Of a DNA stretch of 64,000 nucleotides, positions 13,271 through 61,559 are shown one piece after another. The notes under the pieces are model-generated. The model did no database searches, had not been told where the DNA came from, and saw nothing but the letters and a program-made list of their open reading frames with translations. The DNA comes from Patescibacteria group bacterium (GTDB taxonomy: Bacteria; Patescibacteriota; Patescibacteriia; 2-01-FULL-39-33), in contig JBAZKF010000001.1 of the NCBI GenBank assembly GCA_041650895.1, positions 145,685-209,684 of the forward strand, written 5' to 3'. The translations under genes were made by a program, and so were the position numbers. Within the stretch, counting starts at the first letter, position 1. Each line of letters starts with the position of its first letter.

Positions 13271-13302
13271 ATTTTTTAACGATAAATATATAATCTGATT
13301 AA

Positions 13303-14454: not shown

Positions 14455-14456
14455 AA

Positions 14457-15194: not shown

Positions 15195-15219
15195 AATTTT
15201 AACTGGCAATTATGTAAAT

Positions 15220-16100: not shown

Positions 16101-16177
16101 GTCTTTCTCCCATGCTGCGGCTTACCTCCTACTAGAGAACTATTCTCCAGCCTAAGGCCTACCAATGTACTGCACAC

Positions 16178-26011: not shown

Positions 26012-26837
26012 GCCCAAAATTATTCTTTCCTTTGATTTGGAATATTGGCATTCAAGCAAATTTTTGGAAAAATATTTAGCCGGAAAACAGGCTGACACTC
26101 CGCTACTGAACATAACTCTCTTGGAAAAAATTCTATCTCGGCTTAGCGACTATCCGAATGCCAGTGCCACTTTTTTTGTTCTGGCTGATTTAATGGATCG
26201 CTTCCCCGACTTACTGAAAAAAATCAAAGCTAGCGGCCAAGAAATCGCATTGCATGGTCTTAATCACACACCGATAGATCGCTTAAGCCCCGATGAATTC
26301 CAAAGGGATATAACCAAATCAACGGAAATCTTCCAACGTGTAATTAATGAAGCGCCAAAGGGATTCAGGGCGCCTAATTTTTCAATAAACAAAAGCAACA
26401 AATGGGCCTGGGAAACACTGGGGAAAAACGACTTTGTTTATGATTCAAGTTATTTCCCGTTCTCCTCTGATCCGACAGGGTTAACGCCGATCCAACCCTA
26501 CAAATTAATGACTGAAGCCGCACTCTTAGAATATCCCATTTCAACTTTCCGCTGGCTCGGGATCAATTGGCCAATATCGGGCGGTCTTTATTTCCGCCTG
26601 TTGCCTTATCCGATTTTCTCTTACTTGTTAAAGAAAAAAATCTCAAAAAACCAATTAGTGGTGCTTTATTTCCACTTAATGGATTTGGATGAATCAATAC
26701 CAAACATAAAAATCCCTCACTGGCGCAAAACTTTAAAATATTTCGGCGTCAAAAAAAGTTGGAATAAATTCAACCGACTGCTGAATGATTTTTCCGTTGA
26801 GAGCATTGAACAACATAGGATTAACCATGGCCATTAA
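25998..26837 (+). CDS. polysaccharide deacetylase-family protein (CE4-related, PEP-CTERM-locus subtype-like)
   Basis: KIILSFDLEYWH ... TFFVLADL ... IALHGLNHT resembles the DUF3473/CE4 deacetylase family found in EPS loci. Confidence 0.65.
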   Translation: MNDNKPKIILSFDLEYWHSSKFLEKYLAGKQADTPLLNITLLEKILSRLSDYPNASATFFVLADLMDRFPDLLKKIKASGQEIALHGLNHTPIDRLSPDEFQRDITKSTEIFQRVINEAPKGFRAPNFSINKSNKWAWETLGKNDFVYDSSYFPFSSDPTGLTPIQPYKLMTEAALLEYPISTFRWLGINWPISGGLYFRLLPYPIFSYLLKKKISKNQLVVLYFHLMDLDESIPNIKIPHWRKTLKYFGVKKSWNKFNRLLNDFSVESIEQHRINHGH

Positions 26838-27828
26838 AGAGCTGACAAAAGACCAAGAACAAGCTTGGGAAAATTTCTTAAACAATTGCGAAGAATCTAA
26901 CTTCTCCCATAGTCTTAGAATGCGAAAAATTATCCGCGACAATTATGGATTCGCTGATAATTACCTGGTTAGCACCAACGACCGAGGATTAATCGTCGGG
27001 ATTCTGCCGCTTTTTAAGATCAACAAGAAAAAGTCAGTCTCATTGCCCTTCACTGACTCAGCCGGCTTTATCGGCAATGAATCAGCCTTATCGGAATTTG
27101 CTGATTACCTGATGAGACAAACTGCTAAGGATAGCAAGGAATATGAATTACGCCAAGCTGAGGCGAGAAACTTTAGCCAGGCATCGCTAAGCACCGACAA
27201 TATATCTTCGATGATTGATTTAAAAGAAGATTCAGACAACTTATGGAAGAGAATTGATAAAAAAGCCAGAAACCAGGTGCGCAAAGCCGAAAAATACAAT
27301 CCGGAATATTTAAGACAAAAAGAATTATTAGCCGATTTTTACCTGCTCTATCTCAAATCAATGAAACGGCACGGCACGCCAGCCCATAAAGTGACTTTCT
27401 TTGCCAACATAATGGAACAATTTGACGGCATCATCTGCGCCGTTAAATACAATAATCAGACAGTCGCCGCCGCTTTGACTTTTATCCATAAGAATATATT
27501 GCATATTCCTTGGGCGGCCTCTGACAGAAAGTTTAAATCATTAAATTTTAATGACTACCTCTACTGGCGGATGATTTCTGAATCATGCGACAGGGGGCTT
27601 GACGGAGTAGATCTCGGCAGATCGCAAGTTGATTCCCCTGTAGCCAAATTCAAAAATCAATGGGATTGCCGCGATACCGTTCTGCAATACTATTTAATAT
27701 CATCAAAAAGAAAAAATAATAAAGCACCACAAAAATCCGGGTTACGTTATTTAGCAAAGATTTACCGTTTATTGCCATTAAATATCACTGCCCTAATCGG
27801 TCCCCGACTAAGGAAATACCTGCCCTAA
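26827..27828 (+). CDS. FemAB-like / GNAT-fold acyl(aminoacyl)transferase (EPS-locus associated)
   Basis: Start at ATG 26827 (MAIKELTKDQ) with AGGA upstream. The architecture resembles the FemAB-related proteins that accompany deacetylases in PEP-CTERM EPS loci. Weak, fold-level call. Confidence 0.5.
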   Translation: MAIKELTKDQEQAWENFLNNCEESNFSHSLRMRKIIRDNYGFADNYLVSTNDRGLIVGILPLFKINKKKSVSLPFTDSAGFIGNESALSEFADYLMRQTAKDSKEYELRQAEARNFSQASLSTDNISSMIDLKEDSDNLWKRIDKKARNQVRKAEKYNPEYLRQKELLADFYLLYLKSMKRHGTPAHKVTFFANIMEQFDGIICAVKYNNQTVAAALTFIHKNILHIPWAASDRKFKSLNFNDYLYWRMISESCDRGLDGVDLGRSQVDSPVAKFKNQWDCRDTVLQYYLISSKRKNNKAPQKSGLRYLAKIYRLLPLNITALIGPRLRKYLP

Positions 27829-30682: not shown

Positions 30683-31653
30683 AAGTCGGTCTTTTTAAAA
30701 AAATTCTTTACGGGTAAAAAAATAGCAATTAAAATTAATAAATAAGCGAGACTAAACAAATGTACTATGAAACCAGAAATAATAGACGCTTCCTTATTTA
30801 AGCCTAATAGTCCGAAGCTGATAGCCCAACCTGTTTCATAAGTTCCGAAGTCCCACAATCCCTGGATAGGCAAAAAACTTATTAATTGACTAAAAATCAA
30901 ACCCAGAGTTACTTTAAGCCAGTTAAAATCTATATTTAGGGCACGGAAAAAAACTACGATCATTAAAGAAGCGGACGCCAGCCACAAGAACGAAATCAAC
31001 AAATTAGTCAAGTAAACGGGCCAGGAACGAATTGTTTTGACGCTTGTTGCAACCTCTTCCAACTTAGTAGCCAGCTTAGCGCCAAATTGAAATTTAGTCA
31101 ATCTTGCCCAATGCATTAAAATAACAACCGCTTTAACCAGCCAATCAAGGTAGAATAATATGGCAATCGTGGCTAACCCAAGCATAAAACAGCTTAGATA
31201 GATTCTATTAGGCGGAATGTAGCCGGGGTTAAGCAAAATAAAACCGATCAGAAAAGAAAAAGCCACTGCCAAAAGATCAAAAAATCTGGCTACCAACAGG
31301 ACACTAAGCCCTTCTGCTATGGCTACATTCTCACGTTTTTTTATGAAATAAACAAAACTTAACTCACCGCTTCTAAACGGCATTAAATTACAAAAAAAAG
31401 TATAACCCAAAGTAATTTTCAAGGAACTCAAAAAACTTATTTTCTTAGAAAGAATCAAGACTTGCCAGCGCCAAGCCCGCAAACAAACGCCGATAAAATA
31501 AAAAATAAACGCGATTAAAGCGTAAGTCCATGATATATTTGAAATAATATCCCTGGCTTGAGTGAAATCAATCTGAGTTAAAAGCAAACACAATAAAATT
31601 ATGGTTACGGCCAAGGAGATTGTTTTTTTGCGCTTGGTTATCTTTTTCAACAT
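30679..31653 (-). CDS. UPF0104 / LPG-synthase-TM-like flippase-like membrane protein
   Basis: 324 aa with eight TM helices. The N-terminus MLKKITKRKKTISLAVTIILLCLLL...LRAWRWQVLL is characteristic of this family, which is commonly paired with polyprenyl-phosphate GT2s. Confidence 0.6.
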   Translation of the reverse strand: MLKKITKRKKTISLAVTIILLCLLLTQIDFTQARDIISNISWTYALIAFIFYFIGVCLRAWRWQVLILSKKISFLSSLKITLGYTFFCNLMPFRSGELSFVYFIKKRENVAIAEGLSVLLVARFFDLLAVAFSFLIGFILLNPGYIPPNRIYLSCFMLGLATIAILFYLDWLVKAVVILMHWARLTKFQFGAKLATKLEEVATSVKTIRSWPVYLTNLLISFLWLASASLMIVVFFRALNIDFNWLKVTLGLIFSQLISFLPIQGLWDFGTYETGWAISFGLLGLNKEASIISGFIVHLFSLAYLLILIAIFLPVKNFFKKTDL

Positions 31654-33488
31654 TATTTTATCAAGTTAAGAAACCACATCTTGCCGGGACTGGTTTCAGC
31701 TTCTATTATTCCCGCCTGAGGCCAATCGACAATGTTTATCGCTTGGCTACTGGAGGAAATCTGCCCCGCTAATTCAGCATCATAACCAATTATATATTTT
31801 ACATTATAAACGTCAAAAGCCGACTGAAGTTTTTGCTCCTGCAATAAATGGTTGATAGTATTCGGAGAAAAATAGACAGTTGATACTCCGGTTAAATAAT
31901 TCAACAGAGGATGCAATGACCTATTGCCTACGGCCACCGCCTCTTCCGGTTTGATGGCGACACCCCAAGAACTGATTTGCTCAGCTGAATAAGCAATTTT
32001 CAAATTTATATTATTATCATATCCCCGGCCCCAATAGACATGATTAGCCTGGACTAAGCCATAAATGATTAAAAGAATAATCACCCCGCCGGCCAGCCGA
32101 CTAAATCTCTTTGCAACATAATAATCGCTGATCATCTTAGCTAAGCTCATCAAGCCCAGACTGATAAAAAGAGCAATCACCCAACCCCAATCCATTAAAT
32201 GATTGCGTGAGGCCAGAACGACGTAACTGGAAATAAAAATAGAAAACACCAGCCAACTGACAAAAAGATTGGTTAGATTCTTGTCTCGACGACTCAAGTC
32301 TTTAATACCCAATAACATTAAAATAAAAAACAGTGATCCGCCAATATACTCCAAGGCGAGAAATCGAGAAAGATGCGCCAGCAGATTATTGGATCCGACA
32401 AGAGCCCGCTCCGCCAAATTGATGGGGCGTATGCCGATATTGGCCCCCACCTTAATCAAGTCAATGCTCTTCAATAATCCTCGACCAGCTATGTCGGAAT
32501 TAAATTTGTCTAAAACCGTTTTCTGATCAAAATAAAAAGTATAGGGATCGGGGAAAAGATGGCCGTAAAAATTAAACTCAGACCAATTATTGGTTTGCGT
32601 CTCGCTGGCAAAAAACACCCTGAAATAATCATTATTACCGCTAAAACCGAATATCGCCGGCAACCAGAAAAAAGCTAATATTACAAAAAAAGGAACAAAC
32701 ACCAAACTGATGTTTCCAAGACTGCTTTTGACGGCATTGTTCCTTAAACCGGTTAAGACGGTTTTAAAACGTAACCAAATCAATCGGAAAAAAGACAAAT
32801 CCGTACGGGAATCGATAATAAGGGGTTGCTCTGAGGACTGAAAAATCAACCAAAAAAATAAAACTGGCGGAAATAAGAACATCACTTCCCGCGACAGGCA
32901 AGCTAGCGACAAAAAGACTCCGGACAAAGGCAGAAAAAAATATCTGCCCTTGACTTTACGGCCGATAAAAAACAAAACGCAAAAAACTGAAAAATACAGC
33001 ATCGCGAATTCGTAGGTGCCGATAGTTTGAACCATCTGGGAATTAAACGGCAATAAGATATAAACCAAAGAAAATATTGCGGCTATTTCCCAATCAAACA
33101 AATAAAACACGACGGCCGCAAATAAAACCAAAGCCAATGCCTGAATAATTACGGCAATGACTATTAAAGTGTTGAAATCTGGCAAGCCGATCAACTGAAA
33201 TAATGCAGCATAAGACCAGGTAGTAAACTTATTGCCCTGGGTACTGAGCTGAGCCCGCTGGCTGACTAAAGACGGCGCCAAAACGACATTGCGGCTGTCC
33301 TCCATGCCGTAAACCCCCGTTTGGACAAGATTCCTGGCCAAAATAAAATTCTCCGCTTCGGCCGGTTGGGCAGTACTGCCCTTAAAAAAAACCGGAAAAT
33401 ACCAAAAACCGGCTGCAACAAAAAAAACTACGGGCAATAAAACAAAAAGAATCGAGCTCTTAAACCTAAAATTTGGCTGTTGCGACAT
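31653..33488 (-). CDS. large polytopic membrane protein, unknown function (candidate GT-C-like glycosyltransferase or polymerase)
   Basis: 611 aa with more than 12 TM helices and a C-terminal soluble region of about 150 aa. No recognisable motif. Confidence 0.5.
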   Translation of the reverse strand: MSQQPNFRFKSSILFVLLPVVFFVAAGFWYFPVFFKGSTAQPAEAENFILARNLVQTGVYGMEDSRNVVLAPSLVSQRAQLSTQGNKFTTWSYAALFQLIGLPDFNTLIVIAVIIQALALVLFAAVVFYLFDWEIAAIFSLVYILLPFNSQMVQTIGTYEFAMLYFSVFCVLFFIGRKVKGRYFFLPLSGVFLSLACLSREVMFLFPPVLFFWLIFQSSEQPLIIDSRTDLSFFRLIWLRFKTVLTGLRNNAVKSSLGNISLVFVPFFVILAFFWLPAIFGFSGNNDYFRVFFASETQTNNWSEFNFYGHLFPDPYTFYFDQKTVLDKFNSDIAGRGLLKSIDLIKVGANIGIRPINLAERALVGSNNLLAHLSRFLALEYIGGSLFFILMLLGIKDLSRRDKNLTNLFVSWLVFSIFISSYVVLASRNHLMDWGWVIALFISLGLMSLAKMISDYYVAKRFSRLAGGVIILLIIYGLVQANHVYWGRGYDNNINLKIAYSAEQISSWGVAIKPEEAVAVGNRSLHPLLNYLTGVSTVYFSPNTINHLLQEQKLQSAFDVYNVKYIIGYDAELAGQISSSSQAINIVDWPQAGIIEAETSPGKMWFLNLIK

Positions 33489-43671: not shown

Positions 43672-45021
43672 TTATTTTTTAAAAATCACTTCCTGCCAAA
43701 AAACCGGTTTATACCAATATCCTCGGCCGTATTTAAGGCGATTCTTATAATCCCTTAAGAACAATAAACTCCAAAAAGGCTTCAATTCGGTATTAATCAA
43801 TCCCGCATATTTTTCAATATTATTCCAATGCAACCTTTTACCGGGGAATTTATTTTTTATCCGCTCGAATAAAACGGTTCCAGGATAAGGGATAACGGGC
43901 AAAAATTGTTTAACTTGCAAATTATTTTCGACAATAAAATCTATAGTTTCTTTAATGGTCTGCCGATTTTCTCCCGGTGCGTTCAATAAAACACAATACC
44001 CTCCGGCTACGCCGTTCTCTTTTAAGATATCAATCGCCGATCGTAAATCTGCCGAAGTTATTTTTTTATTAATTTCAATTAAAACCCTGTCACTGGCGGA
44101 CTCCATGCCTAAATTTACATTAATACATCCGGCTCGCTTGACTAAAGGCATAATCCCCCTACTCTTAATGATATCAGTCGCCCGGGCATTGGCGCCCCAA
44201 GAAAACCTGAGGCCTCGATCAATGATAGCTGAACAAATCCTCTCTACCCTGTCGCCATCAATAAAAAATTCCCAGTCCTGAAAAAAAACTGATTTAATTT
44301 GAAAATTATTTATCAAGTACTCAATCTCTTCTATTACTTTTTCAACACTCCTAACAATATAACGTCCGGGCATCATGGCCTTAAGGCAGAAAACACAATT
44401 GTAAGGGCAGCCGCGCGAAGTCATTATGACAGAAAAAGGCTTCTCATAATCATTGCTGGAATATTTATCCATCGGCAACAGATCATAGGCCGGCAAAGGC
44501 AAAACATCCAGATCAATGATTCTCTCACTTGGATTATTCACGATTTTGCCGCCTTGACGATAAGACAAGCCGGAAACTTTCGAAAATGCCTGCTCTGCGG
44601 CCAGGGTAACAATCAAATCAGACGCGGATAATTCTGGCTCACCCCTGATAATAAAATCAACTTGGCAATTATCAAACACCCATTCTGGCATAGTGGTGCC
44701 GTGACTGCCGATCAATATTTTGTACTTAACCTTTACCCGGTCTATAATCTTAAAAATGTTTTCAATATGGGAATTAGGGCACTCCCAGCGGTCAATCGGC
44801 GTAGAGGTAATAATGAAGGCCTCGGGACCGAAATCATTGACTGCCTGGTAAATGGATTCTAACGGCAAATTCAAAACATTGGCATCCAATAATTTGATAT
44901 CGTGGCCGGCCTGCCTTAAAATAGAGGCGATAATAGCCATCGACAACGGCTGCCTGGCCCTGACATTCATAATTGACTTCTTCTCCTGGTTAAAATTAGG
45001 AATTAATAAAAATATTTTCAT
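43672..45021 (-). CDS. cobalamin-binding radical SAM enzyme, paralog 6
   Basis: Start moved to ATG 45021 (MKIFLLIPNF), which removes the 173-nt overlap with the upstream gene. DVLPLPAYDLLP, TSRGCPYNCVFC. Confidence 0.85.
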   Translation of the reverse strand: MKIFLLIPNFNQEKKSIMNVRARQPLSMAIIASILRQAGHDIKLLDANVLNLPLESIYQAVNDFGPEAFIITSTPIDRWECPNSHIENIFKIIDRVKVKYKILIGSHGTTMPEWVFDNCQVDFIIRGEPELSASDLIVTLAAEQAFSKVSGLSYRQGGKIVNNPSERIIDLDVLPLPAYDLLPMDKYSSNDYEKPFSVIMTSRGCPYNCVFCLKAMMPGRYIVRSVEKVIEEIEYLINNFQIKSVFFQDWEFFIDGDRVERICSAIIDRGLRFSWGANARATDIIKSRGIMPLVKRAGCINVNLGMESASDRVLIEINKKITSADLRSAIDILKENGVAGGYCVLLNAPGENRQTIKETIDFIVENNLQVKQFLPVIPYPGTVLFERIKNKFPGKRLHWNNIEKYAGLINTELKPFWSLLFLRDYKNRLKYGRGYWYKPVFWQEVIFKK

Positions 45022-45034
45022 TTTATCGATTAAG

Positions 45035-47599
45035 TTAATCATTGATATAAACCGCTTTGCAACATCTGGAACAAATCGGTAACGAATGCTTGAATAAATA
45101 TTGACGGAATTTTTGGTAATCATTGGACAGCCAAATCTCATCAGGAGTCTTATCCAATAAGCTCCCGAAAGATTTTTCAATGATATCGCACCAAACAACT
45201 TCGCCACGCTGATTAATGCGCAACTCGGGCTGCAATAATTTCAAACAAAAAGGCCGGGACGGTTTCTGACCCAAATACTGCGGTAAGTTATGATAATAAT
45301 TCAACGGAGAGAAATTAACAAAACAGCCAGTCTTAAGTCCGTACAATCTGATTTTAGCCAATTTTTTCTTCAACTCTACGGCGTCAGTATCAGGAGGAAA
45401 AATAGGATCCCTAATCTGCGTATTAAGGCGGTAATCGCGGCCCTCTTCCCAGCCAAACTCCCGATTAAAAATACTCTTGGCTTGAGCTACGTCGGCAGAT
45501 GAATAAACTTGCTCAAATAAGACATTAATTGTTGTAATGCCTAATTTTTTAGTGGTATCAATCAATTCAAAAAATTTATCTACATTATCATTAATTAACA
45601 AGGTGGCGAAAATGGTAATAGGAACTTTAGGCATTTTGGCCTGCAAAAGCTTAATGGCCCGCTCCAACCGATCAAAAGTACCCGGTACGCCCCTAATAGC
45701 GTCATGTAACTCCTTGGGACCGTCCAGCGAGGTTAGAATATCAGTCAGATGCTTATAACCCGCTAATTGATCAATATTACGCTCATTAATAAGCGTACAG
45801 TTAGTTTGAAGGATTACCCGTTTACCGAGAGAATCCCAAAAAGCAATAAGCTGCAAAATATCTTGGCGGGCGAATGGTTCGCCGCCGACTAATTTTATTT
45901 CTTCCACCTGGCTGGACATTTTTTTAAACACCTCAAGAATCTGTTCAGCTGACAATTCCTGCTGGCGTAAATTCCTATTCTCTCCTTGATAACACATCTT
46001 ACAACGCAAATTGCATCTGATGGTCGGTTCATAGCCGACTTCATAAACTAGCGGGGACTCGGTTTGAAAAGGCAGAGCCGGCGCTTGAATAAATTTTTTA
46101 ACCCTGATAATCGCCAACCTATTCCGCCGCCAATCATAAAATATTTTTGCCAGCGGAGAGATTATTGGCACGGCTTTTACCGCTTTTTTAAGCTGATGCT
46201 TATTATTTTTCAAATAAGTTAAGAATAATCCGCAATCATAAACTAAAGGCGAAAAGAAAAAGACATAAACCGGCAGGCGATAACGCGCCAAGACAAAGGG
46301 CGAGACCATCAAAGCGGTATACAGAATTATCATCACTGCAAAAATGAAAAATAGCAGTTTATCCCGATCTTTAAAATAAGAATAAATTAAGGCGATAGCC
46401 AAGGCCAGAGAACTAATACCCCATAAAGCAACACCGGCCAAATAAGTTAATAGTTTAAGATTAATCTGTTTGATGAAGTCAAAAATTCCCTGCCAGTTGC
46501 CATTCAAGATAAATCCGGTGATATCCGGTTTAGAAAACTCCCCAGTGCAAGCCGACCACATCTCGAAGTATCCGGGCTGAAAAAAGAAAGGTATTGTCCT
46601 AATCAGATGAACCTTAAGATAGCCGCCCAGATTGCCTAATATATAAGCCTTGGCCGTTTGACTGTAATAATCCAGCTCGCGATTGAATTCAGATAAGCTG
46701 ACTGACAGGCAATCGCCTTGATTGCCGATATTTTTCCCCAGAGCGCTATCGGCTTGCCGGACAATAAGATTATAAGCATCAGCGTAAGGAATTTGTCTCT
46801 GATAAGAGATCAGCGCTGGCAGATTATAAAAATAAATATTAGTATCAAATAGATTGACCAAAGCCGGCCGATTATAAACAACCTTATTCCTAATAATGAT
46901 CGGCGAAATCACCGCAAAAAATACAATCATGAAAGCAACACAACTTAACAAAATCTTGCGCCAACTCAACTTCGCCAATCCGCCGGTCGGTACGAGTTTC
47001 CGAACCAAATAAACTAAAACAAGACCGGCTGGAAATATTAAAAGCAAGGGGGAAGTATTTTGCCTAGCTAATGTTGAAATGCCGAGCCAAAAAGCGCTCA
47101 GCAACAAATCCCTGCTCTTAGCGCTGGAGAAAAATTTCAAAAAATAATATGTGCCGCCTAAAAATAACGGGATGGCCAAATTCTCGCTGACCAACAAAAA
47201 ATTATGCCAAGCCCAATAAGGTTCAATGGCAATCAAAAAAGTAACCAACAAAGAAATCTTCTCGTTAAAAAACAAGCGAACCAGCTTATAGCCGATGATT
47301 AAGGTCACGAAAGCCAAAACTACTTGCGCCAAATAAATCGTCCATTCCCCTCCCAACCAATGCAATAAGACCGAAGTCGTCAAGTAATACAATGGCGGAT
47401 GCCAATCACAGTAATCGTGAAAAATACCCAATAAAACAGAAACAGCCGGCTGAGCCTGGTTATAAAAATTCTGCCAACCGCCTTTATTTAAGCTGGCCTG
47501 CCAAAAAGTGATAAAAATTGAAATACGCACCGCCAGAAAAGCGGCGACAATGACCAGCCATGACCGATATTTAAAAACGATATTTCTTATATTTGACAT
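45035..47599 (-). CDS. fusion protein: N-terminal polytopic membrane domain (about 480 aa, GT-C-like) plus C-terminal radical SAM/SPASM domain (about 350 aa)
   Basis: The first roughly 480 aa are hydrophobic with 11-13 TM helices. Then come EPTIRCNLRCKMCYQG (CxxxCxxC), VGGEPFARQD, and a C-terminal LPICSRCCKA cluster. The C-terminal domain is similar to the stand-alone 33498..34586 protein. Confidence 0.75.
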   Translation of the reverse strand: MSNIRNIVFKYRSWLVIVAAFLAVRISIFITFWQASLNKGGWQNFYNQAQPAVSVLLGIFHDYCDWHPPLYYLTTSVLLHWLGGEWTIYLAQVVLAFVTLIIGYKLVRLFFNEKISLLVTFLIAIEPYWAWHNFLLVSENLAIPLFLGGTYYFLKFFSSAKSRDLLLSAFWLGISTLARQNTSPLLLIFPAGLVLVYLVRKLVPTGGLAKLSWRKILLSCVAFMIVFFAVISPIIIRNKVVYNRPALVNLFDTNIYFYNLPALISYQRQIPYADAYNLIVRQADSALGKNIGNQGDCLSVSLSEFNRELDYYSQTAKAYILGNLGGYLKVHLIRTIPFFFQPGYFEMWSACTGEFSKPDITGFILNGNWQGIFDFIKQINLKLLTYLAGVALWGISSLALAIALIYSYFKDRDKLLFFIFAVMIILYTALMVSPFVLARYRLPVYVFFFSPLVYDCGLFLTYLKNNKHQLKKAVKAVPIISPLAKIFYDWRRNRLAIIRVKKFIQAPALPFQTESPLVYEVGYEPTIRCNLRCKMCYQGENRNLRQQELSAEQILEVFKKMSSQVEEIKLVGGEPFARQDILQLIAFWDSLGKRVILQTNCTLINERNIDQLAGYKHLTDILTSLDGPKELHDAIRGVPGTFDRLERAIKLLQAKMPKVPITIFATLLINDNVDKFFELIDTTKKLGITTINVLFEQVYSSADVAQAKSIFNREFGWEEGRDYRLNTQIRDPIFPPDTDAVELKKKLAKIRLYGLKTGCFVNFSPLNYYHNLPQYLGQKPSRPFCLKLLQPELRINQRGEVVWCDIIEKSFGSLLDKTPDEIWLSNDYQKFRQYLFKHSLPICSRCCKAVYIND

Positions 47600-49768: not shown

Positions 49769-50425
49769 TTATTTCTTTTTGCAAACTAAATAATAACCGC
49801 TAGTTAAAATGCCATTTTCCGGCCGGGAATGCCTGATATCGCCGAACTCACTCTTTATCGGCGAAGGCAGCCAAACCAATAATTTAACTAATAAAAATAA
49901 CGGGATTTTCATTAAGCGACCGCCGAATAAATTGGCTTGAAAACCTATTCTTTGTAATAAAGCGGCCAAAGTATCCTTAGTTGACAACTCATTGCGCAAT
50001 TCGATTATTTCCCAGCCGTCACTAAATAAAAACCTTAGGCCATACTTGGTAAAACGATAGTAATCATTGGGAATATCATGAAGAGGAAAAATAAACCTGG
50101 TAGTCAAAAGCAACACTCCGCCTGATTTCAGGACTCTTTTCATCTCGGCGACGGCTAAGTGAGGCGAATGCAAATGCTCCAGCAATTCAGTACATAAAAT
50201 CAGATCGAATTTATCATCGGTAAAAGGCAACTGATGAGCGTCGCCCACCACATCAACATTAATCCCCGGCCGATGGTCAAAACCGATGCGGTTGGGAAAT
50301 AAACTTTTGTAAGAACCGTCACCACAACCCAAATCAAGCACCAATTTTTCCGTTGACTGGTACTGGGCGATGAAAGCATCGATTTTTTTTCTGGTTATTT
50401 TGGCAGTTAGAAATTCTTTAATCAT
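49769..50425 (-). CDS. class I SAM-dependent methyltransferase
   Basis: VLDLGCGDGSY and LILCTELLEHL. Confidence 0.8.
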   Translation of the reverse strand: MIKEFLTAKITRKKIDAFIAQYQSTEKLVLDLGCGDGSYKSLFPNRIGFDHRPGINVDVVGDAHQLPFTDDKFDLILCTELLEHLHSPHLAVAEMKRVLKSGGVLLLTTRFIFPLHDIPNDYYRFTKYGLRFLFSDGWEIIELRNELSTKDTLAALLQRIGFQANLFGGRLMKIPLFLLVKLLVWLPSPIKSEFGDIRHSRPENGILTSGYYLVCKKK

Positions 50426-50434
50426 TTTTGCCGT

Positions 50435-51553
50435 TTATGAATTAATGAAAGAGACGATTTTTTCAGCGCGCTTCTTCCAAGTATATTTTTCCGCATCGCT
50501 CCGGGCGCAACGAGAGATATTCTCGGCTAATTGCCGTTGCGTCAAAGCCCGGTTAATGCCCGCCGCTAAAAGATCAGAATTATCCGGCTCAACTAAAATA
50601 GCATTATTATCATTTAAAATTTCCCTCAAAGAAGGCAAATTAGAAGCGACTATAGGTACGCCACTGGCTAAATATTCAAAAAGTTTAAGCGGTGAAGTAT
50701 AAAATTGCGATATTTTTTCCTGCCCGGAATTAGGCAAAACCAAAACATCAGCGGCCTTCAGATAGAACGGGATTTGCTTATGCGGCTGATGGCCGAGAAT
50801 TAAGACATTAGCGCTATTGACATTTTTTTTCTTAAAAGCTTCAACATCTTCCTTAGTACCGCCGATAAAAACAACCAGGGATTCATTAGACAGATACCGG
50901 GCGGCTTCAGCCAAAACCTGCGCTCCTTTCCAACCATAAAGATGGCCGGTGTAAACAATCAATTTTTTATCCAACGGCAAATTAATTTTTTTCCTGGACT
51001 CCGTGGCGGTAATATTCAGATCAAACTCAGCCAAATCAACGCCATCGGGAGCAATTAATATTTTATCAGCAGCGATTCCGTTGCTGGCCAGAGCGGATTT
51101 AATAAAATCAGTCAGAACAACAATCCGTTGAAAACACCGCCAAAAAAGACGATGATACGATTTGATTGTTGCAGGCAAGGAGTGAAGTTCCAAAAAAGAC
51201 GATTTAAAAAATAAGCCGAACTGTTCTTCGCGTGTATATATAATATCATACTCCCTGAAAGACACGTAGATTCTGCTGGCTAACAAAAAAGTTGCAGTCG
51301 CCAGCCAAAAAGCCAGATTACCAATTGTTTTATCCAAAAAAATCAAATCTAAACAGGGTAATTCGGTAATCTTAAAATTAGCCGGTAAACCGTAATAGTT
51401 GAAGGGATCGGCTTTAAGATTATTAGAACGCCGCGGTACCACCAATTCAACTTGATGACCCAAAACAGAGAAAGTCTCGCACATTTTCATGATTTGCCAG
51501 CCATGAGCCTTCTCGGTCGGTATTCTGATGTTTGCCAAATAAATTATTTTCAT
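50435..51553 (-). CDS. glycosyltransferase family 4
   Basis: Start at MKIIYLANI directly after the upstream stop. C-terminal FEYLASGVPIVASN. Confidence 0.8.
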   Translation of the reverse strand: MKIIYLANIRIPTEKAHGWQIMKMCETFSVLGHQVELVVPRRSNNLKADPFNYYGLPANFKITELPCLDLIFLDKTIGNLAFWLATATFLLASRIYVSFREYDIIYTREEQFGLFFKSSFLELHSLPATIKSYHRLFWRCFQRIVVLTDFIKSALASNGIAADKILIAPDGVDLAEFDLNITATESRKKINLPLDKKLIVYTGHLYGWKGAQVLAEAARYLSNESLVVFIGGTKEDVEAFKKKNVNSANVLILGHQPHKQIPFYLKAADVLVLPNSGQEKISQFYTSPLKLFEYLASGVPIVASNLPSLREILNDNNAILVEPDNSDLLAAGINRALTQRQLAENISRCARSDAEKYTWKKRAEKIVSFINS

Positions 51554-53709
51554 TTTTTTGTTTTTACTAAATAACACATTTGATGGCCGAACATATTAGG
51601 CCAAATATCTTTAAGACGAAAACCATTAGACGATTTAAATCTAACAACATCTAGACCCAAATCATTCAGCCAAATCAAAAAATCCTTATGGCTCCAAAAC
51701 CGCAGGTGTTCTGACGGATGTGTCATCCATTGGGTAAAAAATCTTCCTCCAAACATTAAGCCGAAACGATAACGGTAAAAAGCGGAATTAGGAACTGAAA
51801 TTGCCAAATAGTCGGCATTATCTTTTATTTTAGAGATTAAATCCTCGGGATATTTGATGTGTTCCAAAACCTCTGAAATCACAATGTAATCATATCGGTC
51901 GTCCAAATTAAAATCAGCGCTCTCGATATCGGCTTTTACTCCGTCAATGCCGGCTTGCTTTAAGTTATTGATTACTAATCCGGAAATATCCAAACCACTG
52001 ACCCGGCAACCCTTCTTTTCTTTTAATTCATAAGGCAGACGCGAACTGCCACAGCCAAGATCCAGAATTTTAGCTCCGGGCTTAATCCAATCCATAAAAA
52101 TCACTTCCCTTTCCATTAATTTGCTACGCATCTTGAAGCCGCGCTCTGACCAATACTGATCATAATCAAGTTGTTTGGTGATATTTTTGAAATCAGGGCG
52201 ACGCGTACCCTCAAAGAAGAACGATTTCGAGACGCGAGCTATGATTTTGTCAAAATAATACTTAAGCGCGCGCTTGACTTTGAATAATATAAAATCTAAA
52301 CGCTCTTTTTTGTTACCCAACTTAAGCCAGATTTTTGCCAGCTTCAAAAAGTGGGTTAAGCCTCTCTTTTTTACGCCCTCAAATATCTCCTGACGCCAAC
52401 TCTCAAATAATTTTCCCAACTCCTGGGAATCACTGACGCCAGAACGATTGAATTTGTCCTGGCTTTGGAAAAAAGAGAAATTACAATAATCGGAGGTATT
52501 GATACGACCCTTAAAAAAATCATTAAAAAGCTTCGTCCCTGGCAGGGCGGTAAAGATACTGAAAGAATAATGATCAGCTTTGATTTTCTTGGCGAATTCA
52601 AAGGTTTGCCGCATTTCTTCTTTAGTTTCGCCGGGCAGGCCGATCATAAAGCCGGCTTCGCGACGGATGCCGTGTTTCCGGCAAAGTTCCAGGGCTTTTT
52701 CCACATCGGATAATTTTATCCTTTTATTAATGATTTCATCTAAAACGCGCTGATTACCCGATTCAACGCCAAAATCAAGCTGTAAACAGCCACTTTCGGC
52801 CATTAACTTGATGATTTCTTCATTAACCAAATCCACTCGCGATTGAGCCCCCCAATACAGACCGGCTTCCTTCATAATCTGGCAAACCTTCCTAACATGA
52901 TCGTAATTAGCCGTTAAGGTATCATCAGCAAACCAAATTCCTTCAACGCCATATTTATCCCTTAAAAGATAGATTTCTTTTTTGATGTTTTCCAAACTGC
53001 GATAACGCACCTGACGCCCAAAAACCTGATTGCAGGCGCAAAAAGTGCAGCTGTAGGGACAGCCCCGGGAAGCCATAACCATCACCGCTTTCATAGGGAT
53101 GCCTCGGATAATATCGTCCCAGATCTTAGTATAGTAGGTCATATTCACCTTATCATAAGCCGGCAAGCTTAAATCAGTCAGATCCATATACTCCCGCCGT
53201 TCATTGATGACAACTTCATTATTCTGATCCGGCCAGGCGATGCCCTTCACCTTCCTTAGATCGGGCGACTCCTGCTGTAATTCCTTAATTAATTCAAAAG
53301 TAGTTTGTTCGCCTTCGCCGATAATGGCGGCATCAAAGCCGGAATTAACTACGCCAATCGGATCGGCTGTAGCTTGAGGCCCGCCGATAATCGAAAAAAC
53401 TTTGAGTTCTTTTTTAATCCTCTGATTCATTTCCACAGCTTCGGCAATTTCCATGGTCGTGGCAGTAAAACCGATTACTTGCGGCTTAAACTCTAAAACA
53501 GCCTTAATGATCTCCTCCTTGGCTCTTTCACGATTATCGTATTGATAGCCTCTGTCCGCGAATATTTTCCCGTCGATAATCAAATTATCAAAACCATGAT
53601 CCCGCAAATATCCGGAAATATACATCAAACCCAAAGAATAACGATGCTCCTTGAGCCGTTTAGGGGGAAGAATAAAAATCAAATCTTTATCTTGGCTAAT
53701 TTTTATCAT
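51550..53709 (-). CDS. fusion: cobalamin-binding radical SAM (paralog 8) plus C-terminal class I SAM-dependent methyltransferase domain
   Basis: TDLSLPAYD and ASRGCPYSCTFCACNQ in the N-terminal 470 aa. The C-terminal 200 aa carry ILDLGCGSSRLPY ... YDYIVISEVLEHI (MT motifs I and II). Confidence 0.85.
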   Translation of the reverse strand: MIKISQDKDLIFILPPKRLKEHRYSLGLMYISGYLRDHGFDNLIIDGKIFADRGYQYDNRERAKEEIIKAVLEFKPQVIGFTATTMEIAEAVEMNQRIKKELKVFSIIGGPQATADPIGVVNSGFDAAIIGEGEQTTFELIKELQQESPDLRKVKGIAWPDQNNEVVINERREYMDLTDLSLPAYDKVNMTYYTKIWDDIIRGIPMKAVMVMASRGCPYSCTFCACNQVFGRQVRYRSLENIKKEIYLLRDKYGVEGIWFADDTLTANYDHVRKVCQIMKEAGLYWGAQSRVDLVNEEIIKLMAESGCLQLDFGVESGNQRVLDEIINKRIKLSDVEKALELCRKHGIRREAGFMIGLPGETKEEMRQTFEFAKKIKADHYSFSIFTALPGTKLFNDFFKGRINTSDYCNFSFFQSQDKFNRSGVSDSQELGKLFESWRQEIFEGVKKRGLTHFLKLAKIWLKLGNKKERLDFILFKVKRALKYYFDKIIARVSKSFFFEGTRRPDFKNITKQLDYDQYWSERGFKMRSKLMEREVIFMDWIKPGAKILDLGCGSSRLPYELKEKKGCRVSGLDISGLVINNLKQAGIDGVKADIESADFNLDDRYDYIVISEVLEHIKYPEDLISKIKDNADYLAISVPNSAFYRYRFGLMFGGRFFTQWMTHPSEHLRFWSHKDFLIWLNDLGLDVVRFKSSNGFRLKDIWPNMFGHQMCYLVKTKK

Positions 53710-54775
53710 ATTTGTTTTTGGGGCCTAATAACTCTTCAATAAGACCGCCATCTAACAATTGTTTGACTAAAATTTCCGGCCGGCATAATCGGCAATAAAT
53801 CTCATAACCATTATCGGCGATTTTTTCATAATTTATTCTACCCTCTTTCAGCGCTAAGATTTTAGACGCCAAATCCTGGGCATCGGCCAAACGGCAAAAA
53901 ACCGCATCTTGGCCGTCCGTAAGCAATTCCCTGATAGCCGAAGAATCACCGGTCAAAACCGGCCGCTTGGCCGCTAAGCCCTCATAAACCTTATTAGGGA
54001 TAACTCTTTTAGCTTTATCAGTATGGCCGAATATACCTAGGCAAACATCAGCCTCCGCCAAATAGCCCCTTAAATTATCAATGGACACGGGCTCTATAAA
54101 ATTAACATTACTGACTTTAAGCCGGCTCGCCAAGTCAATTATTTCCCGGTAAGTCTGACCGTGGCCGATAATATTAAATTTGATATTTTCCCCCTCTAGA
54201 ATTTTCGTCGCTTCAATAATATACTCTATGCCCTGTAAAGGAATAAAACTGCCATGAAAATGAACCAAAAAATAATCTTTTTTCTTAGGAGTAATAGGAA
54301 AAATAACCTTATCATCACAACCGACTAAAACCCGATAAAACTTTTTTCTCTCCAACTTTAATTCTTTTACAAAATAGTCAATCTGGGCATTGGTATCCAA
54401 TAAAATTTTATCCGCCAAACGGCAGGATAACCAATCCAATAACCAGTAATACCTTCCTTTAAGGCTTTGCGCTTTAACGATTTTCCTATCTTCAACCATG
54501 GAATCAAAAAAAGAGTAAAAAGCGTCAAAAACAATCGGTTTAACGGTTAAAAGCCTGGCCAAAATCATGGCCTGAAACCCCGGAAAACCAACGATCATAA
54601 TATCATATTTCTTACGGATTGACCAGTGTTTTTTAATTAAATCCCAATACTTCAACGGCCCTTTGACGCTTGTTCGGCATTCAATCACATCAACGCCGTT
54701 TAACTTAAAACCGCCAAGCAAAATCCTATTGCGGCTATAATCAGGATCATAAATTCCGAAATAACAAATAATCAT
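53696..54775 (-). CDS. GT-B fold glycosyltransferase (GT4-like)
   Basis: C-terminal half NFIEPVS ... VIPNKVYEGLAAKRPVL with GT-B nucleotide-sugar-binding character. The N-terminus is divergent. Confidence 0.6.
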   Translation of the reverse strand: MIICYFGIYDPDYSRNRILLGGFKLNGVDVIECRTSVKGPLKYWDLIKKHWSIRKKYDIMIVGFPGFQAMILARLLTVKPIVFDAFYSFFDSMVEDRKIVKAQSLKGRYYWLLDWLSCRLADKILLDTNAQIDYFVKELKLERKKFYRVLVGCDDKVIFPITPKKKDYFLVHFHGSFIPLQGIEYIIEATKILEGENIKFNIIGHGQTYREIIDLASRLKVSNVNFIEPVSIDNLRGYLAEADVCLGIFGHTDKAKRVIPNKVYEGLAAKRPVLTGDSSAIRELLTDGQDAVFCRLADAQDLASKILALKEGRINYEKIADNGYEIYCRLCRPEILVKQLLDGGLIEELLGPKNKYDKN

Positions 54776-55514: not shown

Positions 55515-56589
55515 AGGCTTTTTTGATATTAACGACTAAATTTTTAATACTATAAGAAGCTACGACAATGCGACGCAACTCAACAGCCATAACCTGCTTC
55601 TCGGATGAATCCAATTCAGACAATTTCTTTATTTTGACCGCCAATTCCCGACTGTCAGCTTTTTCCAATAATAACAAATCTTGGTAGTCGCCCAGGATCA
55701 CGGAAAAAGTTTGATTATAAACTACGGCCGGCACGCCACAGGCCAACGATTCCAAAACCACTTTGTCCAATCCCCCGGTGGGGCACAAGTTAATGCTTAA
55801 ATCGGCTTGCTGATAATAATAAGGCAGGTCCTTATTGGGGATATTGCCTATCCAATCAATATAATCTTCCAGTCGGCGTTTTTTTATTTCCTCTTTCAAT
55901 AAGGCAGCGTATCTCAAACCATCAAGATTCGGCGGTGAGCCGATAAAAGACAAGGTGATATTTTTTATTCCTAATTCATGCACCAAAATATCAACAGCTT
56001 TAATCAATAATAATTGATTTTTTATTTCGCTGATCCGGCCGACGCTGACGATTTGTAATTTATCCTGTCGAGCCGTCGCCCAATCTTTAAGACAGAATTT
56101 ATCAATATCAATGCCATGGCCGACGATTTTCACTTTGGCACTAGCAAGCCGGAAACTTTCGGGCGAGGCGGTAAAAATAATATCAGCCAACAATTCAGCT
56201 AATCTTAATTTAAAATTAACCGCTTTATGCGCATACCAGAGGCCGATAATTTTGCCCTGCAAACGCCAGATCAAACCAGCCAGAATGACATAAACAACAT
56301 TCATGTGAACAAAAACAGCATCATAATCATGGCGAACCAACCATAAATATTTATAAAAACGCCACAAGTAACGCCAACGCGACGGCCTGTCTTCCTTGCC
56401 CAAAGATAAAACCCTGACATTGGCAGGCAAATCATACTTACCTTTATATAGGCAGATAACAGTCACTTGAGAAAAATTATTGGCAAACTCTTTAAGCCAA
56501 TCATGAAAAAATCCCAACAGACCGTCGGCGTCATCCACTTTCTGAGTCAAGATTAATAATTTCAATTTTTTATTTTTTGGCAATGGCAT
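55498..56589 (-). CDS. glycosyltransferase family 4
   Basis: KVVLESLACGVPAVVYN near the C-terminus; about 363 aa. Confidence 0.75.
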   Translation of the reverse strand: MPLPKNKKLKLLILTQKVDDADGLLGFFHDWLKEFANNFSQVTVICLYKGKYDLPANVRVLSLGKEDRPSRWRYLWRFYKYLWLVRHDYDAVFVHMNVVYVILAGLIWRLQGKIIGLWYAHKAVNFKLRLAELLADIIFTASPESFRLASAKVKIVGHGIDIDKFCLKDWATARQDKLQIVSVGRISEIKNQLLLIKAVDILVHELGIKNITLSFIGSPPNLDGLRYAALLKEEIKKRRLEDYIDWIGNIPNKDLPYYYQQADLSINLCPTGGLDKVVLESLACGVPAVVYNQTFSVILGDYQDLLLLEKADSRELAVKIKKLSELDSSEKQVMAVELRRIVVASYSIKNLVVNIKKAYGEEN

Positions 56590-57172
56590 ATAAATTCAAA
56601 CCTAATTCGAAGCTGCCGCCGGTGATTTTATCGGCCGCAAAGCCGGTGGCGGAAAACTGTTTAAATAATTCCTGTCGACTATAGAACTGCTGATGCTCAC
56701 CGATCTCATCCGGTGAAACTATTTTAAACGCGGCCAATAACGACAGCAGACCCTTAGTTTTTCCCCAGGGAGTCGTCACTATAAGCAACCCGCCGGGAAC
56801 AAGCGCTCGATAAGATTGAGCCAGAATATTTAAAGCCGCGGTTTCATCCAAATGTTCCAAAACTGCCAGCATGGTTACAACATTAAAACAACTGGGACTG
56901 ACCGGCAAATTATCGCCGGTTTTGAATTCGTATTTTTTTAAGCTAACTCCGTCGATCATTCCTTCGCTGACCGATTTATCCAATCCGACTTTGGCCGAAA
57001 ACTTAACCTGCGCCAAAAAATAAGGATAAGAACCGCAGCCGATATCAAGAATAGCTCCCGACCTTAAATCAGCAGGAATCAACCTGTCAACTTTATTAGC
57101 CCGACGCCGGGCCAAGTATTTCTCTAAGACGCCATACCCCCTGGTAGGAGCGGCGGAACCGGTTATTTCCAT
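56570..57172 (-). CDS. class I SAM-dependent methyltransferase
   Basis: ILDIGCGSYPY and VVTMLAVLEHL. Confidence 0.8.
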   Translation of the reverse strand: MEITGSAAPTRGYGVLEKYLARRRANKVDRLIPADLRSGAILDIGCGSYPYFLAQVKFSAKVGLDKSVSEGMIDGVSLKKYEFKTGDNLPVSPSCFNVVTMLAVLEHLDETAALNILAQSYRALVPGGLLIVTTPWGKTKGLLSLLAAFKIVSPDEIGEHQQFYSRQELFKQFSATGFAADKITGGSFELGLNLYAIAKK

Positions 57173-59351: not shown

Positions 59352-61559
59352 TTAAAGGAATCGACTAAAAAACGCTCTGAATCCGTCACTGGTCAACAAC
59401 CATAAATAGTCAACCAAAACAATAACGATAACGACCGCAACCCGACTCGGCCAGCGGTAAAAATATTTTCTTAACCCGTTAACGGCCAACAAGGTTAATA
59501 GCAAAGCCAGGACAAAATACAAACGAGATGACACACCGGTCCAAAGCAAAAACATAAACGACGGCAGAATCAGGCACTTAACCAGGAACCTCTGATCGGC
59601 GGTAAACTCCCGCCATTTAATCAATCCTAACGGCACCAAAAGCCAAGCAGCCAGATAAACGCCGACGATACTCTTAACAACAAAAAACGGCTGATATTCG
59701 GAACCGCTGGGAGCGCTAATGCCCAGTTTATACCAATCCAAATATGAATAATGATAAATGAAATAAACCACGATTTGCCAAGCGATTAAGGGCAAGCCGA
59801 CCGCTAAGGTTGATAAAAATAATTTTTTGAGTTTTTCGGCTCGAGGCAGTTGCGGATGGAAACATATCACCAGATACAGGAAAGCCATACCCAAACTGCT
59901 ATATTCTTTCCATAACATGCCAACAACAACCATCAACGAAGTTAAAAATAAATTAAAGTTGTTAGGCCGTTTATAAAATCTAATGACGCCGATAGCGGCC
60001 AAAACCCAGAATAATTGGGCGCCCGACTCGGTAAACAAATCCAAGCCATACTTAAGTAACGGATAGGAAGAAATATAAATCAACGCTCCCAGAAGCGCCA
60101 TTCCTCTATTTTTAAAAAACAAATAAAATAAAACGTAAACGGCTAAAGCCAAAAAAACATAAAATATAATCGCCTCTATCTCAAAAGCTAACGATAGATT
60201 GCCACCGGTTAAAAACGACAGTCCGGCAATACCCATAGGCCCCAACGGTTTTAAAATTCTGGAAGGAAAACTCTCCGCCATTTGTCCCATAAACAGCTTA
60301 GCCGTTTCCATATACTGATAAGCATCGCCGTTAATGCTAAAACCGACAAAATTGAGCCGAATAAACACGTTCAACGCTACCGCGGTTAAGATTAAAAGAA
60401 TCGGCCAAAAATGATTATTGGTCGACTTGGTCGGCCGGCACTTTTTGTCTATGGCTGTTTGCCAGCTTTTCAGATAAAGCGCCAAATTTTCCTCTCGGCC
60501 GGGCAAAATGTTAATCGCCGATTCGGCCGACTGGCTGAGTTGCCGGCGCAAGCCAATATTCTGAATAATCTTTTTCATGGCGTCAGCTAATTTTTCTTCG
60601 TCGCCAACGGGCGTGATTAATGCGCTGACTCCGTCTTTCAACACCTCACCGGCGCAACCGACATCAGTCATCACTACCGCCAAACCGCAACTGGCGGCTT
60701 CTATTATCACCATCCCCCAACCCTCATAATCAGAACTCAAAACATAACTATCGGCTGAGTTGTAATAATCATAAATATTGTCAGTCCAACCGATCAAAAA
60801 GATTTTATCCTCCAAGCCGGATTCTTTTATTTGTTGGGCGAGTTTGTCTTTTTCCGGACCGCGACCGACTATAAGCAAAACCGCCTCCGGCAATTGCCGG
60901 GCAACCGTGGCGAAAGCTCTGATCAGCAACGGCAGATTTTTCTGTTTTACCAATCGAGCCATAGTCAAAAAAACAGTTTTGCCGACTAAGCGGCCGAAAA
61001 TCTCCGGCTTAGTTTCGCTGAATTGCTTCTCGGGCTTAACATAGACAGGAACAACAACAATTTTATCTTCGGCTATATGCAAATCATTAACCAAAGTATC
61101 CTTTATCCGCTCACTGACTGCGCGCACGCTGTCGGCTCGCTTAATCAGCCAGCGCCCCAGATAATAACGGCAAAAGTTAATAGGATTTTCATTGCGCCAA
61201 TAAGTCGCGCTAAAAAAATCGCCATGTTCCTGAATATTCAAAGCGCTCTTGAATTTCCTAGCCAGCAATAATCCCATCAGCGACAATTCAAAAGGATCTT
61301 GAACCGTTATGACATCATAATTATTCTGGCGGAACAGTTTTTTCGCTAACCGATACATATTGAATAGTGCCGCTAATCGGTTGCCGCCACCCGTGCCGTA
61401 AGCCGTTACTTTTTCTGATAATTTAATTTCTTGCGCTGGCGTAGCGGGCACGATAATATCATAAGCGTCCGTCATAACGCCATACTCAATCAAACGCCGA
61501 GTTACGGGTGATGAGGAAACGAATACGCCTTTATCGGTGCCTAAGTTTAATACTTTCAT
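59352..61559 (-). CDS. fusion: N-terminal GT4 glycosyltransferase (about 370 aa) plus C-terminal polytopic membrane domain (about 360 aa)
   Basis: DYEGWGMVIIEAASCGLAVVMTDVG (GT4 EX7E region) at about aa 280-305. From about aa 375 onward there are 10-11 TM helices (WPILLILTAVALNVF ...). Confidence 0.75.
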   Translation of the reverse strand: MKVLNLGTDKGVFVSSSPVTRRLIEYGVMTDAYDIIVPATPAQEIKLSEKVTAYGTGGGNRLAALFNMYRLAKKLFRQNNYDVITVQDPFELSLMGLLLARKFKSALNIQEHGDFFSATYWRNENPINFCRYYLGRWLIKRADSVRAVSERIKDTLVNDLHIAEDKIVVVPVYVKPEKQFSETKPEIFGRLVGKTVFLTMARLVKQKNLPLLIRAFATVARQLPEAVLLIVGRGPEKDKLAQQIKESGLEDKIFLIGWTDNIYDYYNSADSYVLSSDYEGWGMVIIEAASCGLAVVMTDVGCAGEVLKDGVSALITPVGDEEKLADAMKKIIQNIGLRRQLSQSAESAINILPGREENLALYLKSWQTAIDKKCRPTKSTNNHFWPILLILTAVALNVFIRLNFVGFSINGDAYQYMETAKLFMGQMAESFPSRILKPLGPMGIAGLSFLTGGNLSLAFEIEAIIFYVFLALAVYVLFYLFFKNRGMALLGALIYISSYPLLKYGLDLFTESGAQLFWVLAAIGVIRFYKRPNNFNLFLTSLMVVVGMLWKEYSSLGMAFLYLVICFHPQLPRAEKLKKLFLSTLAVGLPLIAWQIVVYFIYHYSYLDWYKLGISAPSGSEYQPFFVVKSIVGVYLAAWLLVPLGLIKWREFTADQRFLVKCLILPSFMFLLWTGVSSRLYFVLALLLTLLAVNGLRKYFYRWPSRVAVVIVIVLVDYLWLLTSDGFRAFFSRFL

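Follow-up and report, generated by a model that had tools for sequence, protein, structure and literature searches.

The window analysed here, a stretch of 64,000 nucleotides from the uncultured Candidatus Buchananbacteria (Patescibacteria), carries a 45-kb lipid-linked glycan assembly locus, in which a cobalamin (B12)-binding radical S-adenosylmethionine (SAM) enzyme and a class I SAM-dependent methyltransferase are encoded as one polypeptide. The gene lies on the reverse strand at 51550..53709, starts with ATG and runs as a single open reading frame (ORF) of 719 residues without an internal stop. A preliminary description of the window had proposed such a fusion of a B12-radical SAM (B12-rSAM) protein with a class I methyltransferase (MT), and the Pfam domains agree with it. 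The features of the gene are the following:

51550..53709, reverse strand: whole fused gene, 719 residues and stop; B12-binding domain, radical SAM core, helical extension, linker and MetW-like class I MT
53299..53637, reverse strand: cobalamin-binding Rossmann-type domain, residues 25-137 (Pfam PF02310, 57 bits vs. a cutoff of 32)
52591..53070, reverse strand: radical SAM core, residues 214-373 (Pfam PF04055, 110 bits)
52228..52512, reverse strand: C-terminal helical extension of the rSAM half, residues 400-494, equivalent to the C-terminus of stand-alone orthologues of ~493 residues
52210..52254, reverse strand: fusion junction and short variable linker, residues 486-500, with the junction proper at residues ~486-497
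51553..52221, reverse strand: MetW-like class I SAM MT domain, residues 497-719 (Pfam, AlphaFold2 and Foldseek)

The extra C-terminal domain had been put at about 200 residues and the junction near 52300; the domain is present, with an actual size of 223-225 residues, and the junction is found slightly further downstream, at ~52210-52254.

In the N-terminal half, a B12-binding Rossmann-type domain precedes the radical SAM core, the arrangement that characterizes class B enzymes, as seen from the PF02310 match and from structural matches. This domain is modelled by AlphaFold2 (AF2) with a predicted local distance difference test (pLDDT) score >90. The CxxxCxxC motif of the radical SAM superfamily, here CPYSCTFC (residues 217-224, window 53038-53061), lies in a partial TIM-barrel core whose fold matches rSAM enzymes, and it is kept in all five fused orthologues. 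In the helical extension, the model places helices at residues 428-494. The C-terminal half is recognized by the Pfam models MetW (PF07021; residues 538-715, 72 bits for a cutoff of 21, profile positions 7-193 of 193) and Methyltransf_23 (residues 531-689, 60 bits). Both sequence motifs described earlier for this half are there, motif I as ILDLGCGSS (residues 548-556, window 52042-52068) and motif II as YDYIVISEVLEHI (residues 606-618, window 51856-51894), and the post-I acidic residue sits in SGLDIS. The elements LDLGCGSS, SGLDIS and YDYIVISEVLEH, with alternating beta and alpha elements in the AF2 model, place the domain among the class I MTs. Modelled by itself, the domain reaches a pLDDT of 91.4, and Foldseek matched it with a probability of 1.00 to many class I MTs of the PDB, including the structural-genomics entries 3cc8, 3l8d and 2p7h, TehB, alkaloid N-MTs and the sugar or natural-product MTs EvdMO1, AtmM and CcbJ. 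Known corrinoid-binding proteins are absent from the 50 PDB matches listed. The full-length model was built on a mixed full-length alignment, untidy at 1003 columns; it has a pLDDT of 82 and a predicted template modelling (pTM) score of 0.72, and it shows long helices up to residue 494, then an unstructured stretch, then the MT domain.

How the two halves meet is visible from their unfused relatives, which are abundant for both. Stand-alone rSAM orthologues (52-67% identity) are mostly 490-497 residues long and end mostly at residues ~493-497; the C-termini of the stand-alone proteins P0006, P0007, P0008, P0015 and P0022 align to residue ~489 of the fusion (…KR..KY.LNK.GF.F…). Stand-alone MT relatives (222-230 residues, 50-74% identity) align from residue 497 of the fusion, which corresponds to their residue 2. 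Because the stand-alone rSAM proteins stop and the stand-alone MTs start at the junction, the alignments identify the fusion as two complete proteins joined end to start and separated by ~10 variable residues. Read directly, the junction DNA contains neither a frameshift nor a stop. Between the window and the comparison locus L013, which also holds the fusion, the linker is 53% identical vs. 75-89% for the domains.

The origin of the MT half was examined by comparison with other MTs. The fused MT is 24-29% identical to the three stand-alone MTs of the window, which rules out a recent duplication of one of these. Its own family is called MT-B here; MT-A is a different MetW-like MT, 29% identical to the fused one. 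Mere loss of a stop codon between adjacent rSAM and MT-B genes was rejected as well, as in none of the loci sampled does MT-B come directly after the orthologous rSAM: this order exists in L012, but with a different rSAM paralogue (24% identity), and in L009 MT-B is upstream of the rSAM gene.

In L012, the stand-alone MT-B (2414-3166, 250 residues) is extended at its N-terminus (…FFKLKYYWGKLVKKINQP…), and this extension aligns with the end of the rSAM half, residues 482-496 of the fusion, although the rSAM gene located 17 nt upstream is the paralogue of 24% identity. This MT-B may be a fission product of a fused ancestor of which the rSAM part was replaced.

A database search for the same fusion recovered P0001 (NCBI/JGI/ENA), which is identical to the window protein and has no annotation other than "radical SAM protein" or "methionine biosynthesis protein"; its source is a Patescibacteria metagenome-assembled genome (MAG) with a longest contig of 957,791 bp. 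Another four clusters (90% identity, 719-722 residues), 77-88% identical to it and all from Ca. Buchananbacteria, are colinear over the junction, and a GTDB species-representative Ca. Buchananbacteria MAG holds the fusion at 87%. The single-protein scan of genome contigs, which reached very close relatives only, yielded one fused locus and two distant rSAM proteins. The architecture is rare and confined to one lineage. In a codon comparison between the window and L013, the proportion of nonsynonymous differences (pN) is 0.05-0.16 and that of synonymous differences (pS) 0.64-0.80 (saturated) in the B12, rSAM and MT segments; the linker of ~15 residues is the sole relaxed segment. All five fused proteins have kept the CxxxCxxC motif and the MT motifs I, post-I and II intact. 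The low pN against a saturated pS, with intact catalytic motifs in five proteins, indicates that both halves are maintained by strong purifying selection. An artefact, two adjacent genes joined by a sequencing or assembly error, had been named as the finding that would overturn the fusion. It is refuted by the colinear orthologues, found in five 90%-identity clusters from several sources and in the GTDB representative, and by a continuous frame under purifying selection on either side of the junction; no point was found in its favour, and its probability is negligible. Literature searches found no description of a covalent B12-rSAM/class I MT fusion or of its glycan-locus context, and nothing relevant on B12-rSAM enzymes in Patescibacteria or the candidate phyla radiation.

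The gene is set between two glycosyltransferase (GT) genes, and other MTs and a deacetylase occur in the same locus:

53696..54775, reverse strand: upstream GT, Glycos_transf_1, 359 residues; conserved left flank, its stop overlapping the fusion start by 14 nt
50435..51553, reverse strand: downstream family 4 GT (GT4), ~372 residues from the ATG at 51553; conserved right flank, with an ATGA overlap with the fusion stop codon
54780..55514, reverse strand: polysaccharide deacetylase, two genes upstream of the fusion
49769..50425, reverse strand: stand-alone class I MT of another subfamily, after the GT4; 24% identity to the fused MT, with a counterpart in L013
25307-26011, forward strand: stand-alone class I MT
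56570-57172, reverse strand: stand-alone class I MT

Overlaps of 14 nt upstream and ATGA downstream couple the translation of the fusion to that of both flanking GT genes. The last three genes, already singled out in the preliminary description, are real class I MTs, and they belong to subfamilies other than that of the fused MT. Orthologues of the upstream GT (39-67% identity) are directly upstream of a variable slot in L001, L004, L005, L009, L011 and L012, and orthologues of the downstream GT4 (37-65% identity) directly downstream of it in L001, L004, L010, L011 and L012. L013 has the order deacetylase, GT, fusion, and a GT4 gene at the position of the downstream GT4 of the window (orthology not compared). 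The mechanical GTG start of the downstream GT4 at 51577 (ORF 50435-51577) is probably wrong; its orthologues align from residue 9. The slot is occupied as follows:

Window and L013: fusion
L004: orthologous rSAM only
L011: MT-B only
P0164 locus: MT-B alone as judged by the gene pattern, and no rSAM within 8 kb; GT orthology not compared
L001: MT-A and rSAM
L009: MT-B and rSAM; downstream GT4 absent
L010: different B12-rSAM paralogue, DegT, then MT-B
L012: different B12-rSAM paralogue, then MT-B

Both activities hence share a pathway position between two conserved GT genes, yet each occurs without the other. A DegT aminotransferase gene is found directly before MT-B in L007 and L010, and two genes upstream of it in L005.

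Fusion of the two enzyme types is not limited to this order or to this MT family. The protein P0009 (727 residues) is an opposite-order fusion, MT then rSAM: its residues 235-727 share 72% identity with the stand-alone rSAM P0008 and 63% with the rSAM half of the window, and its residues 3-218 share 66% with MT-A, which in L001 has a gene of its own that ends 5 nt before the rSAM gene. More distant B12-rSAM proteins carry other class I MTs, C-terminal in P0087 and P0244 and N-terminal in P0293 and P0299.

Larger relatives of the rSAM half were also seen. P0246, P0247, P0249, P0254, P0257, P0266, P0275, P0280 and P0295 contain two to five tandem matches to it, in proteins of up to 2,331 residues, and Pfam confirmed the doubled domains in five tandem B12-rSAM relatives of ~1,000 residues. 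These tandem proteins may be assembly-line-like iterative modifiers. In P0366, a type I phosphodiesterase domain is fused to a B12-rSAM.

The rSAM half is closest, in sequence and structure searches, to the cobalamin-dependent glutamine C-methylase MgmA/QCMT (PDB 9CCB), followed by AprD4, TsrM, OxsB, CysS and TokK, although identity with the solved members is only 17-23%. Family models of ApyD, BchE and QCMT match from residues 24-26 and the PhpK model from residue 61. The score of the QCMT/MJ_0865 model TIGR04014 is 136 bits against a cutoff of 360, and the AprD4-family model NF033070 reaches 115 bits against 500 and aligns to residues 169-405 only, far from full length. AprD4 does not bind cobalamin (PMC12931638).

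The MT-B family, to which the fused MT belongs, was aligned for 101 members. G59 is invariant and D79 and D112 nearly so; beyond the SAM motifs, ~24 residues are strictly invariant, in a C-terminal substrate-side block (PNSAFYRYR…GRFFTQW..HPSEHLRFWSH), which fits a conserved acceptor site. The assignment as a true MetW, which the Pfam match might suggest, was ruled out by the score of the equivalog model TIGR02081 (69.9 bits vs. a cutoff of 189.5, so that only the looser PF07021 threshold is passed) and by a gene context without metX: in the window and in seven stand-alone MT-B loci (L005, L007, L009-L012 and the P0164 locus) the gene is surrounded by glycosyltransferase genes and a deacetylase gene. 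A literature search on MetW gave nothing decisive on its mechanism.

With a slightly better than even chance, the fused protein is a bifunctional tailoring enzyme of lipid-linked cell-surface glycan assembly, in which two autonomous SAM modules act on the same glycan intermediate. The N-terminal ~495 residues would use a [4Fe-4S] cluster and SAM to generate a 5'-deoxyadenosyl radical, and would most probably methylate an unactivated carbon via methylcobalamin. The C-terminal ~223 residues would methylate an O or N atom in a separate, polar reaction. Each module would be catalytically autonomous, and the two would share as substrate one sugar or glycan intermediate, which is made between the reactions of the two flanking glycosyltransferases. 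Two genes, once separate, would have been joined end to start in one Buchananbacteria lineage, and the fusion would bring stoichiometric co-expression and proximity. C-methylation by the rSAM half is probable by analogy with GenK and GenD1 and from its nearest structure. For the MT half, N-methylation of a sugar amine is plausible, given the deacetylase of the window and L013, a possible source of a free sugar amine, and the DegT genes of L005, L007 and L010.

Pairs of this kind have precedents. In gentamicin, the class B C-methylases GenK and GenD1 and the class I N- and O-MTs GenN and GenL work on one scaffold, and in the benzimidazole pathway BzaC and then BzaD, a class I MT and a class B methylase, do the same. 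Of the two explanations offered in the preliminary description, tandem C- and O-/N-methylation of one sugar is the better supported, because the fusions are independent and because both activities share the slot between conserved GT genes; this support is comparative. The other, a cobalamin re-methylation module, is disfavoured because the partners occur independently, nine B12-rSAM paralogues of the window are unfused, the MT fold is an ordinary one and class B enzymes methylate their own cofactor.

Several points weigh against the bifunctional reading. A gene fusion indicates functional linkage, not necessarily action on the same atom or residue. The glycan substrate is inferred from the gene neighbourhood only, and C-methylation by the rSAM half and O- or N-methylation by the MT half are inferred as well. 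For the MT half, the Foldseek matches tell neither O- from N-methylation nor sugars from other small-molecule substrates. Cobalamin synthesis is not known from Patescibacteria, which leaves the cofactor supply unexplained. For the rSAM half, all NCBIfam equivalog matches are far below their cutoffs, so that no specific function transfers, and AprD4, a sugar diol-dehydratase, ranks second among the structural matches. Methylating and non-methylating B12-rSAM enzymes are inseparable by sequence (PMC12931638, section 6), and from sequence alone the rSAM half cannot be called a methylase or otherwise.

The rSAM half could perform another radical sugar chemistry (dehydration or deoxygenation as in AprD4, epimerisation, or ring contraction as in HpnJ and OxsB), after which the class I MT would methylate the product or a neighbouring group. 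This is unlikely. In its favour, AprD4 is the second-best PDB match in both sequence and structure, the HpnJ and BchE models score as well as the methylase models, and non-methylating members have no distinguishing features (PMC12931638). However, the likeness to AprD4 is limited to the rSAM core (residues 171-404 or 169-405), the N-terminal domain matches true B12-binding domains, the top structural match is the methylase QCMT, and most characterised members of the superfamily are C-methyltransferases (PMC12931638). Both halves might also build an alkyl group at one site, the MT adding an O- or N-methyl that the B12-rSAM half extends to an ethyl or branched alkyl, like CysF and CysS in cystobactamid. 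The iterative methylases CysS and TokK are among the sequence and structural relatives, fusion of polar MTs in both orders would fit obligate sequential action, and tandem multi-module B12-rSAM proteins occur among the relatives; yet the similarity to CysS is weak (E 6e-8), direct evidence is absent, the rSAM orthologue of L004 has no MT of the MT-B family in its locus, and MT-B occurs without rSAM. This reading is improbable. The same low probability is given to its broader form, in which the fused enzyme, the related MT/B12-rSAM fusions and the tandem multi-B12-rSAM proteins constitute an alkyl-building machine on surface-glycan sugars; if true, the glycans of Patescibacteria would bear hydrophobic decorations of a type that has yet to be described from any cell envelope.

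The MT domain might only bind SAM or S-adenosylhomocysteine, or stabilise the rSAM half, as a non-catalytic accessory, for which the top Pfam match, MetW over the full profile, would speak. True MetW is an accessory partner of MetX that is not known to transfer methyl groups and whose function is unsettled, which also counts for this role. It is nevertheless very unlikely in view of the SAM motifs and the ~24 invariant substrate-side residues in 101 members, the low pN, the abundance of the stand-alone family in glycan loci without a constant partner, and the missed TIGR02081 cutoff. Re-methylation or loading of the cobalamin of the rSAM half by the class I MT can be given hardly any probability either; covalent linkage and the use of SAM by both halves suggest it, and nothing else does. 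MT-B is found in the same slot without an orthologous rSAM, in one locus without any B12-rSAM within 8 kb, and the orthologous rSAM is found without MT-B in L004. The nine other B12-rSAM paralogues of the window have no fused MT, and the fold matches, as far as the 50 listed go, are to ordinary MTs of small molecules or RNA. No likeness to a corrinoid re-methylation module (e.g., the MetH activation domain) was found among those matches, and co-occurrence with the B12-rSAM is not obligate. Moreover, class B enzymes themselves transfer the methyl group of SAM to cob(I)alamin, within their active site, as in the TokK, TsrM and Mmp10 structures, which counts against such a service.

Fusions of B12-rSAM enzymes with class I MTs recur independently, in both orders and with different MT subfamilies, which makes a Rosetta-stone argument, implying that the many uncharacterised B12-rSAM genes of Patescibacteria glycan loci share substrates with ordinary sugar methyltransferases. 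It gives a handle on function for a large uncharacterised B12-rSAM branch and for a MetW-like MT family that is routinely mis-annotated as "methionine biosynthesis protein". It also points to a cobalamin demand in minimal-genome organisms; by itself, it brings no new chemistry. The compact three-gene cassette of GT, fusion and GT is experimentally tractable. Both domains come from well-known superfamilies, and their fusion is not surprising in principle.

The locus as a whole contains a Bac_transf initiating transferase, GtrA, a Wzx-like flippase, an NDP-sugar epimerase/dehydratase and many GT2, GT4 and GT9 genes, as well as two polysaccharide deacetylases, a FemAB-like protein and nine further B12-rSAM paralogues. 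With the fusion, these make ten B12-binding/radical SAM paralogues within ~35 kb (window 27833-63013):

Positions of the B12-rSAM paralogues: 27833, forward strand; 29255, 35551, 39562, 42255, 43672, 47611, 51550, 57874 and 61568, all reverse strand

So large a number implies that the need for cobalamin is heavy, in a lineage from which its synthesis is not known; no corrinoid transporter was seen within the window. With its listed GTG start, the paralogue at 43672-45207 (reverse strand, 511 residues) shares 173 nt with the upstream gene and has its B12 domain only from residue 87 on; the true start is probably further downstream. That upstream gene (45035-47599, reverse strand) encodes an unusual 854-residue fusion of PMT_2, a GT-C type membrane glycosyltransferase, with radical SAM and SPASM, which is kept in L013 (10970-13513, 847 residues). 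The FemAB/GNAT-like acyl- or peptidyl-transferase (26785-27828, forward strand) and a DUF3473 polysaccharide deacetylase (25998-26837, forward strand) suggest that a deacetylated sugar amine is decorated with amino acids or acyl groups. A 735-residue GT4 (59352-61559, reverse strand) has no Pfam match in its C-terminal ~390 residues. Four reverse-strand ORFs have no Pfam match at all (E<=1e-4): 31653-33488 (611 residues), inside the glycan locus between LPG_synthase_TM-like and radical SAM genes, 6758-8620 (620 residues), 12347-13312 (321 residues) and 15410-16177 (255 residues). At 13303-15209 (reverse strand), a LUD-domain/4Fe-4S protein and a CCG cysteine-rich protein form a LutB/LutA-like lactate-utilisation pair, which adjoins the housekeeping genes MetRS (9994-11490), TatD (8565-9440) and an RsmI-like TP_methylase (11555-12241).

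For the rSAM half, the closest precedent in function is the C-methylation of sugars by GenK and GenD1. The fusion shares with class B methylases (MgmA/QCMT 9CCB, TokK, CysS and TsrM, and the sugar-modifying GenK, GenD1, Fms7 and MoeK5) the order of a B12 Rossmann domain and an rSAM TIM-barrel with CxxxCxxC. It differs from them in its location, a primary cell-envelope glycan locus of Patescibacteria instead of an antibiotic cluster, and in its attached class I MT, which is absent from the characterised members listed in a review, GenK and GenD1 among them (PMC12931638). AprD4 (6FD2), a radical SAM 1,2-diol dehydratase, has an aminoglycoside sugar as its substrate in apramycin biosynthesis; its match with the fusion is confined to the rSAM core, residues 171-404, and it lacks the cobalamin binding (PMC12931638). 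With MetW (PF07021/TIGR02081), the MT domain has in common the full-length Pfam similarity and the class I MT fold; on the contrary, it scores below the TIGR02081 cutoff, has no adjacent metX, occurs in glycosyltransferase operons and represents a distinct Patescibacteria subfamily of ~225 residues. Polar and radical methylation of one small molecule by the products of clustered genes is likewise found for BzaC/BzaD (5-methoxy-6-methylbenzimidazole), CysF/CysS (cystobactamid alkoxy groups) and GenN/GenL with GenK/GenD1. These partners are separate polypeptides, while the enzymes of the window form one chain, in an order that is reversed in relatives, and their substrate is presumably a lipid-linked glycan.

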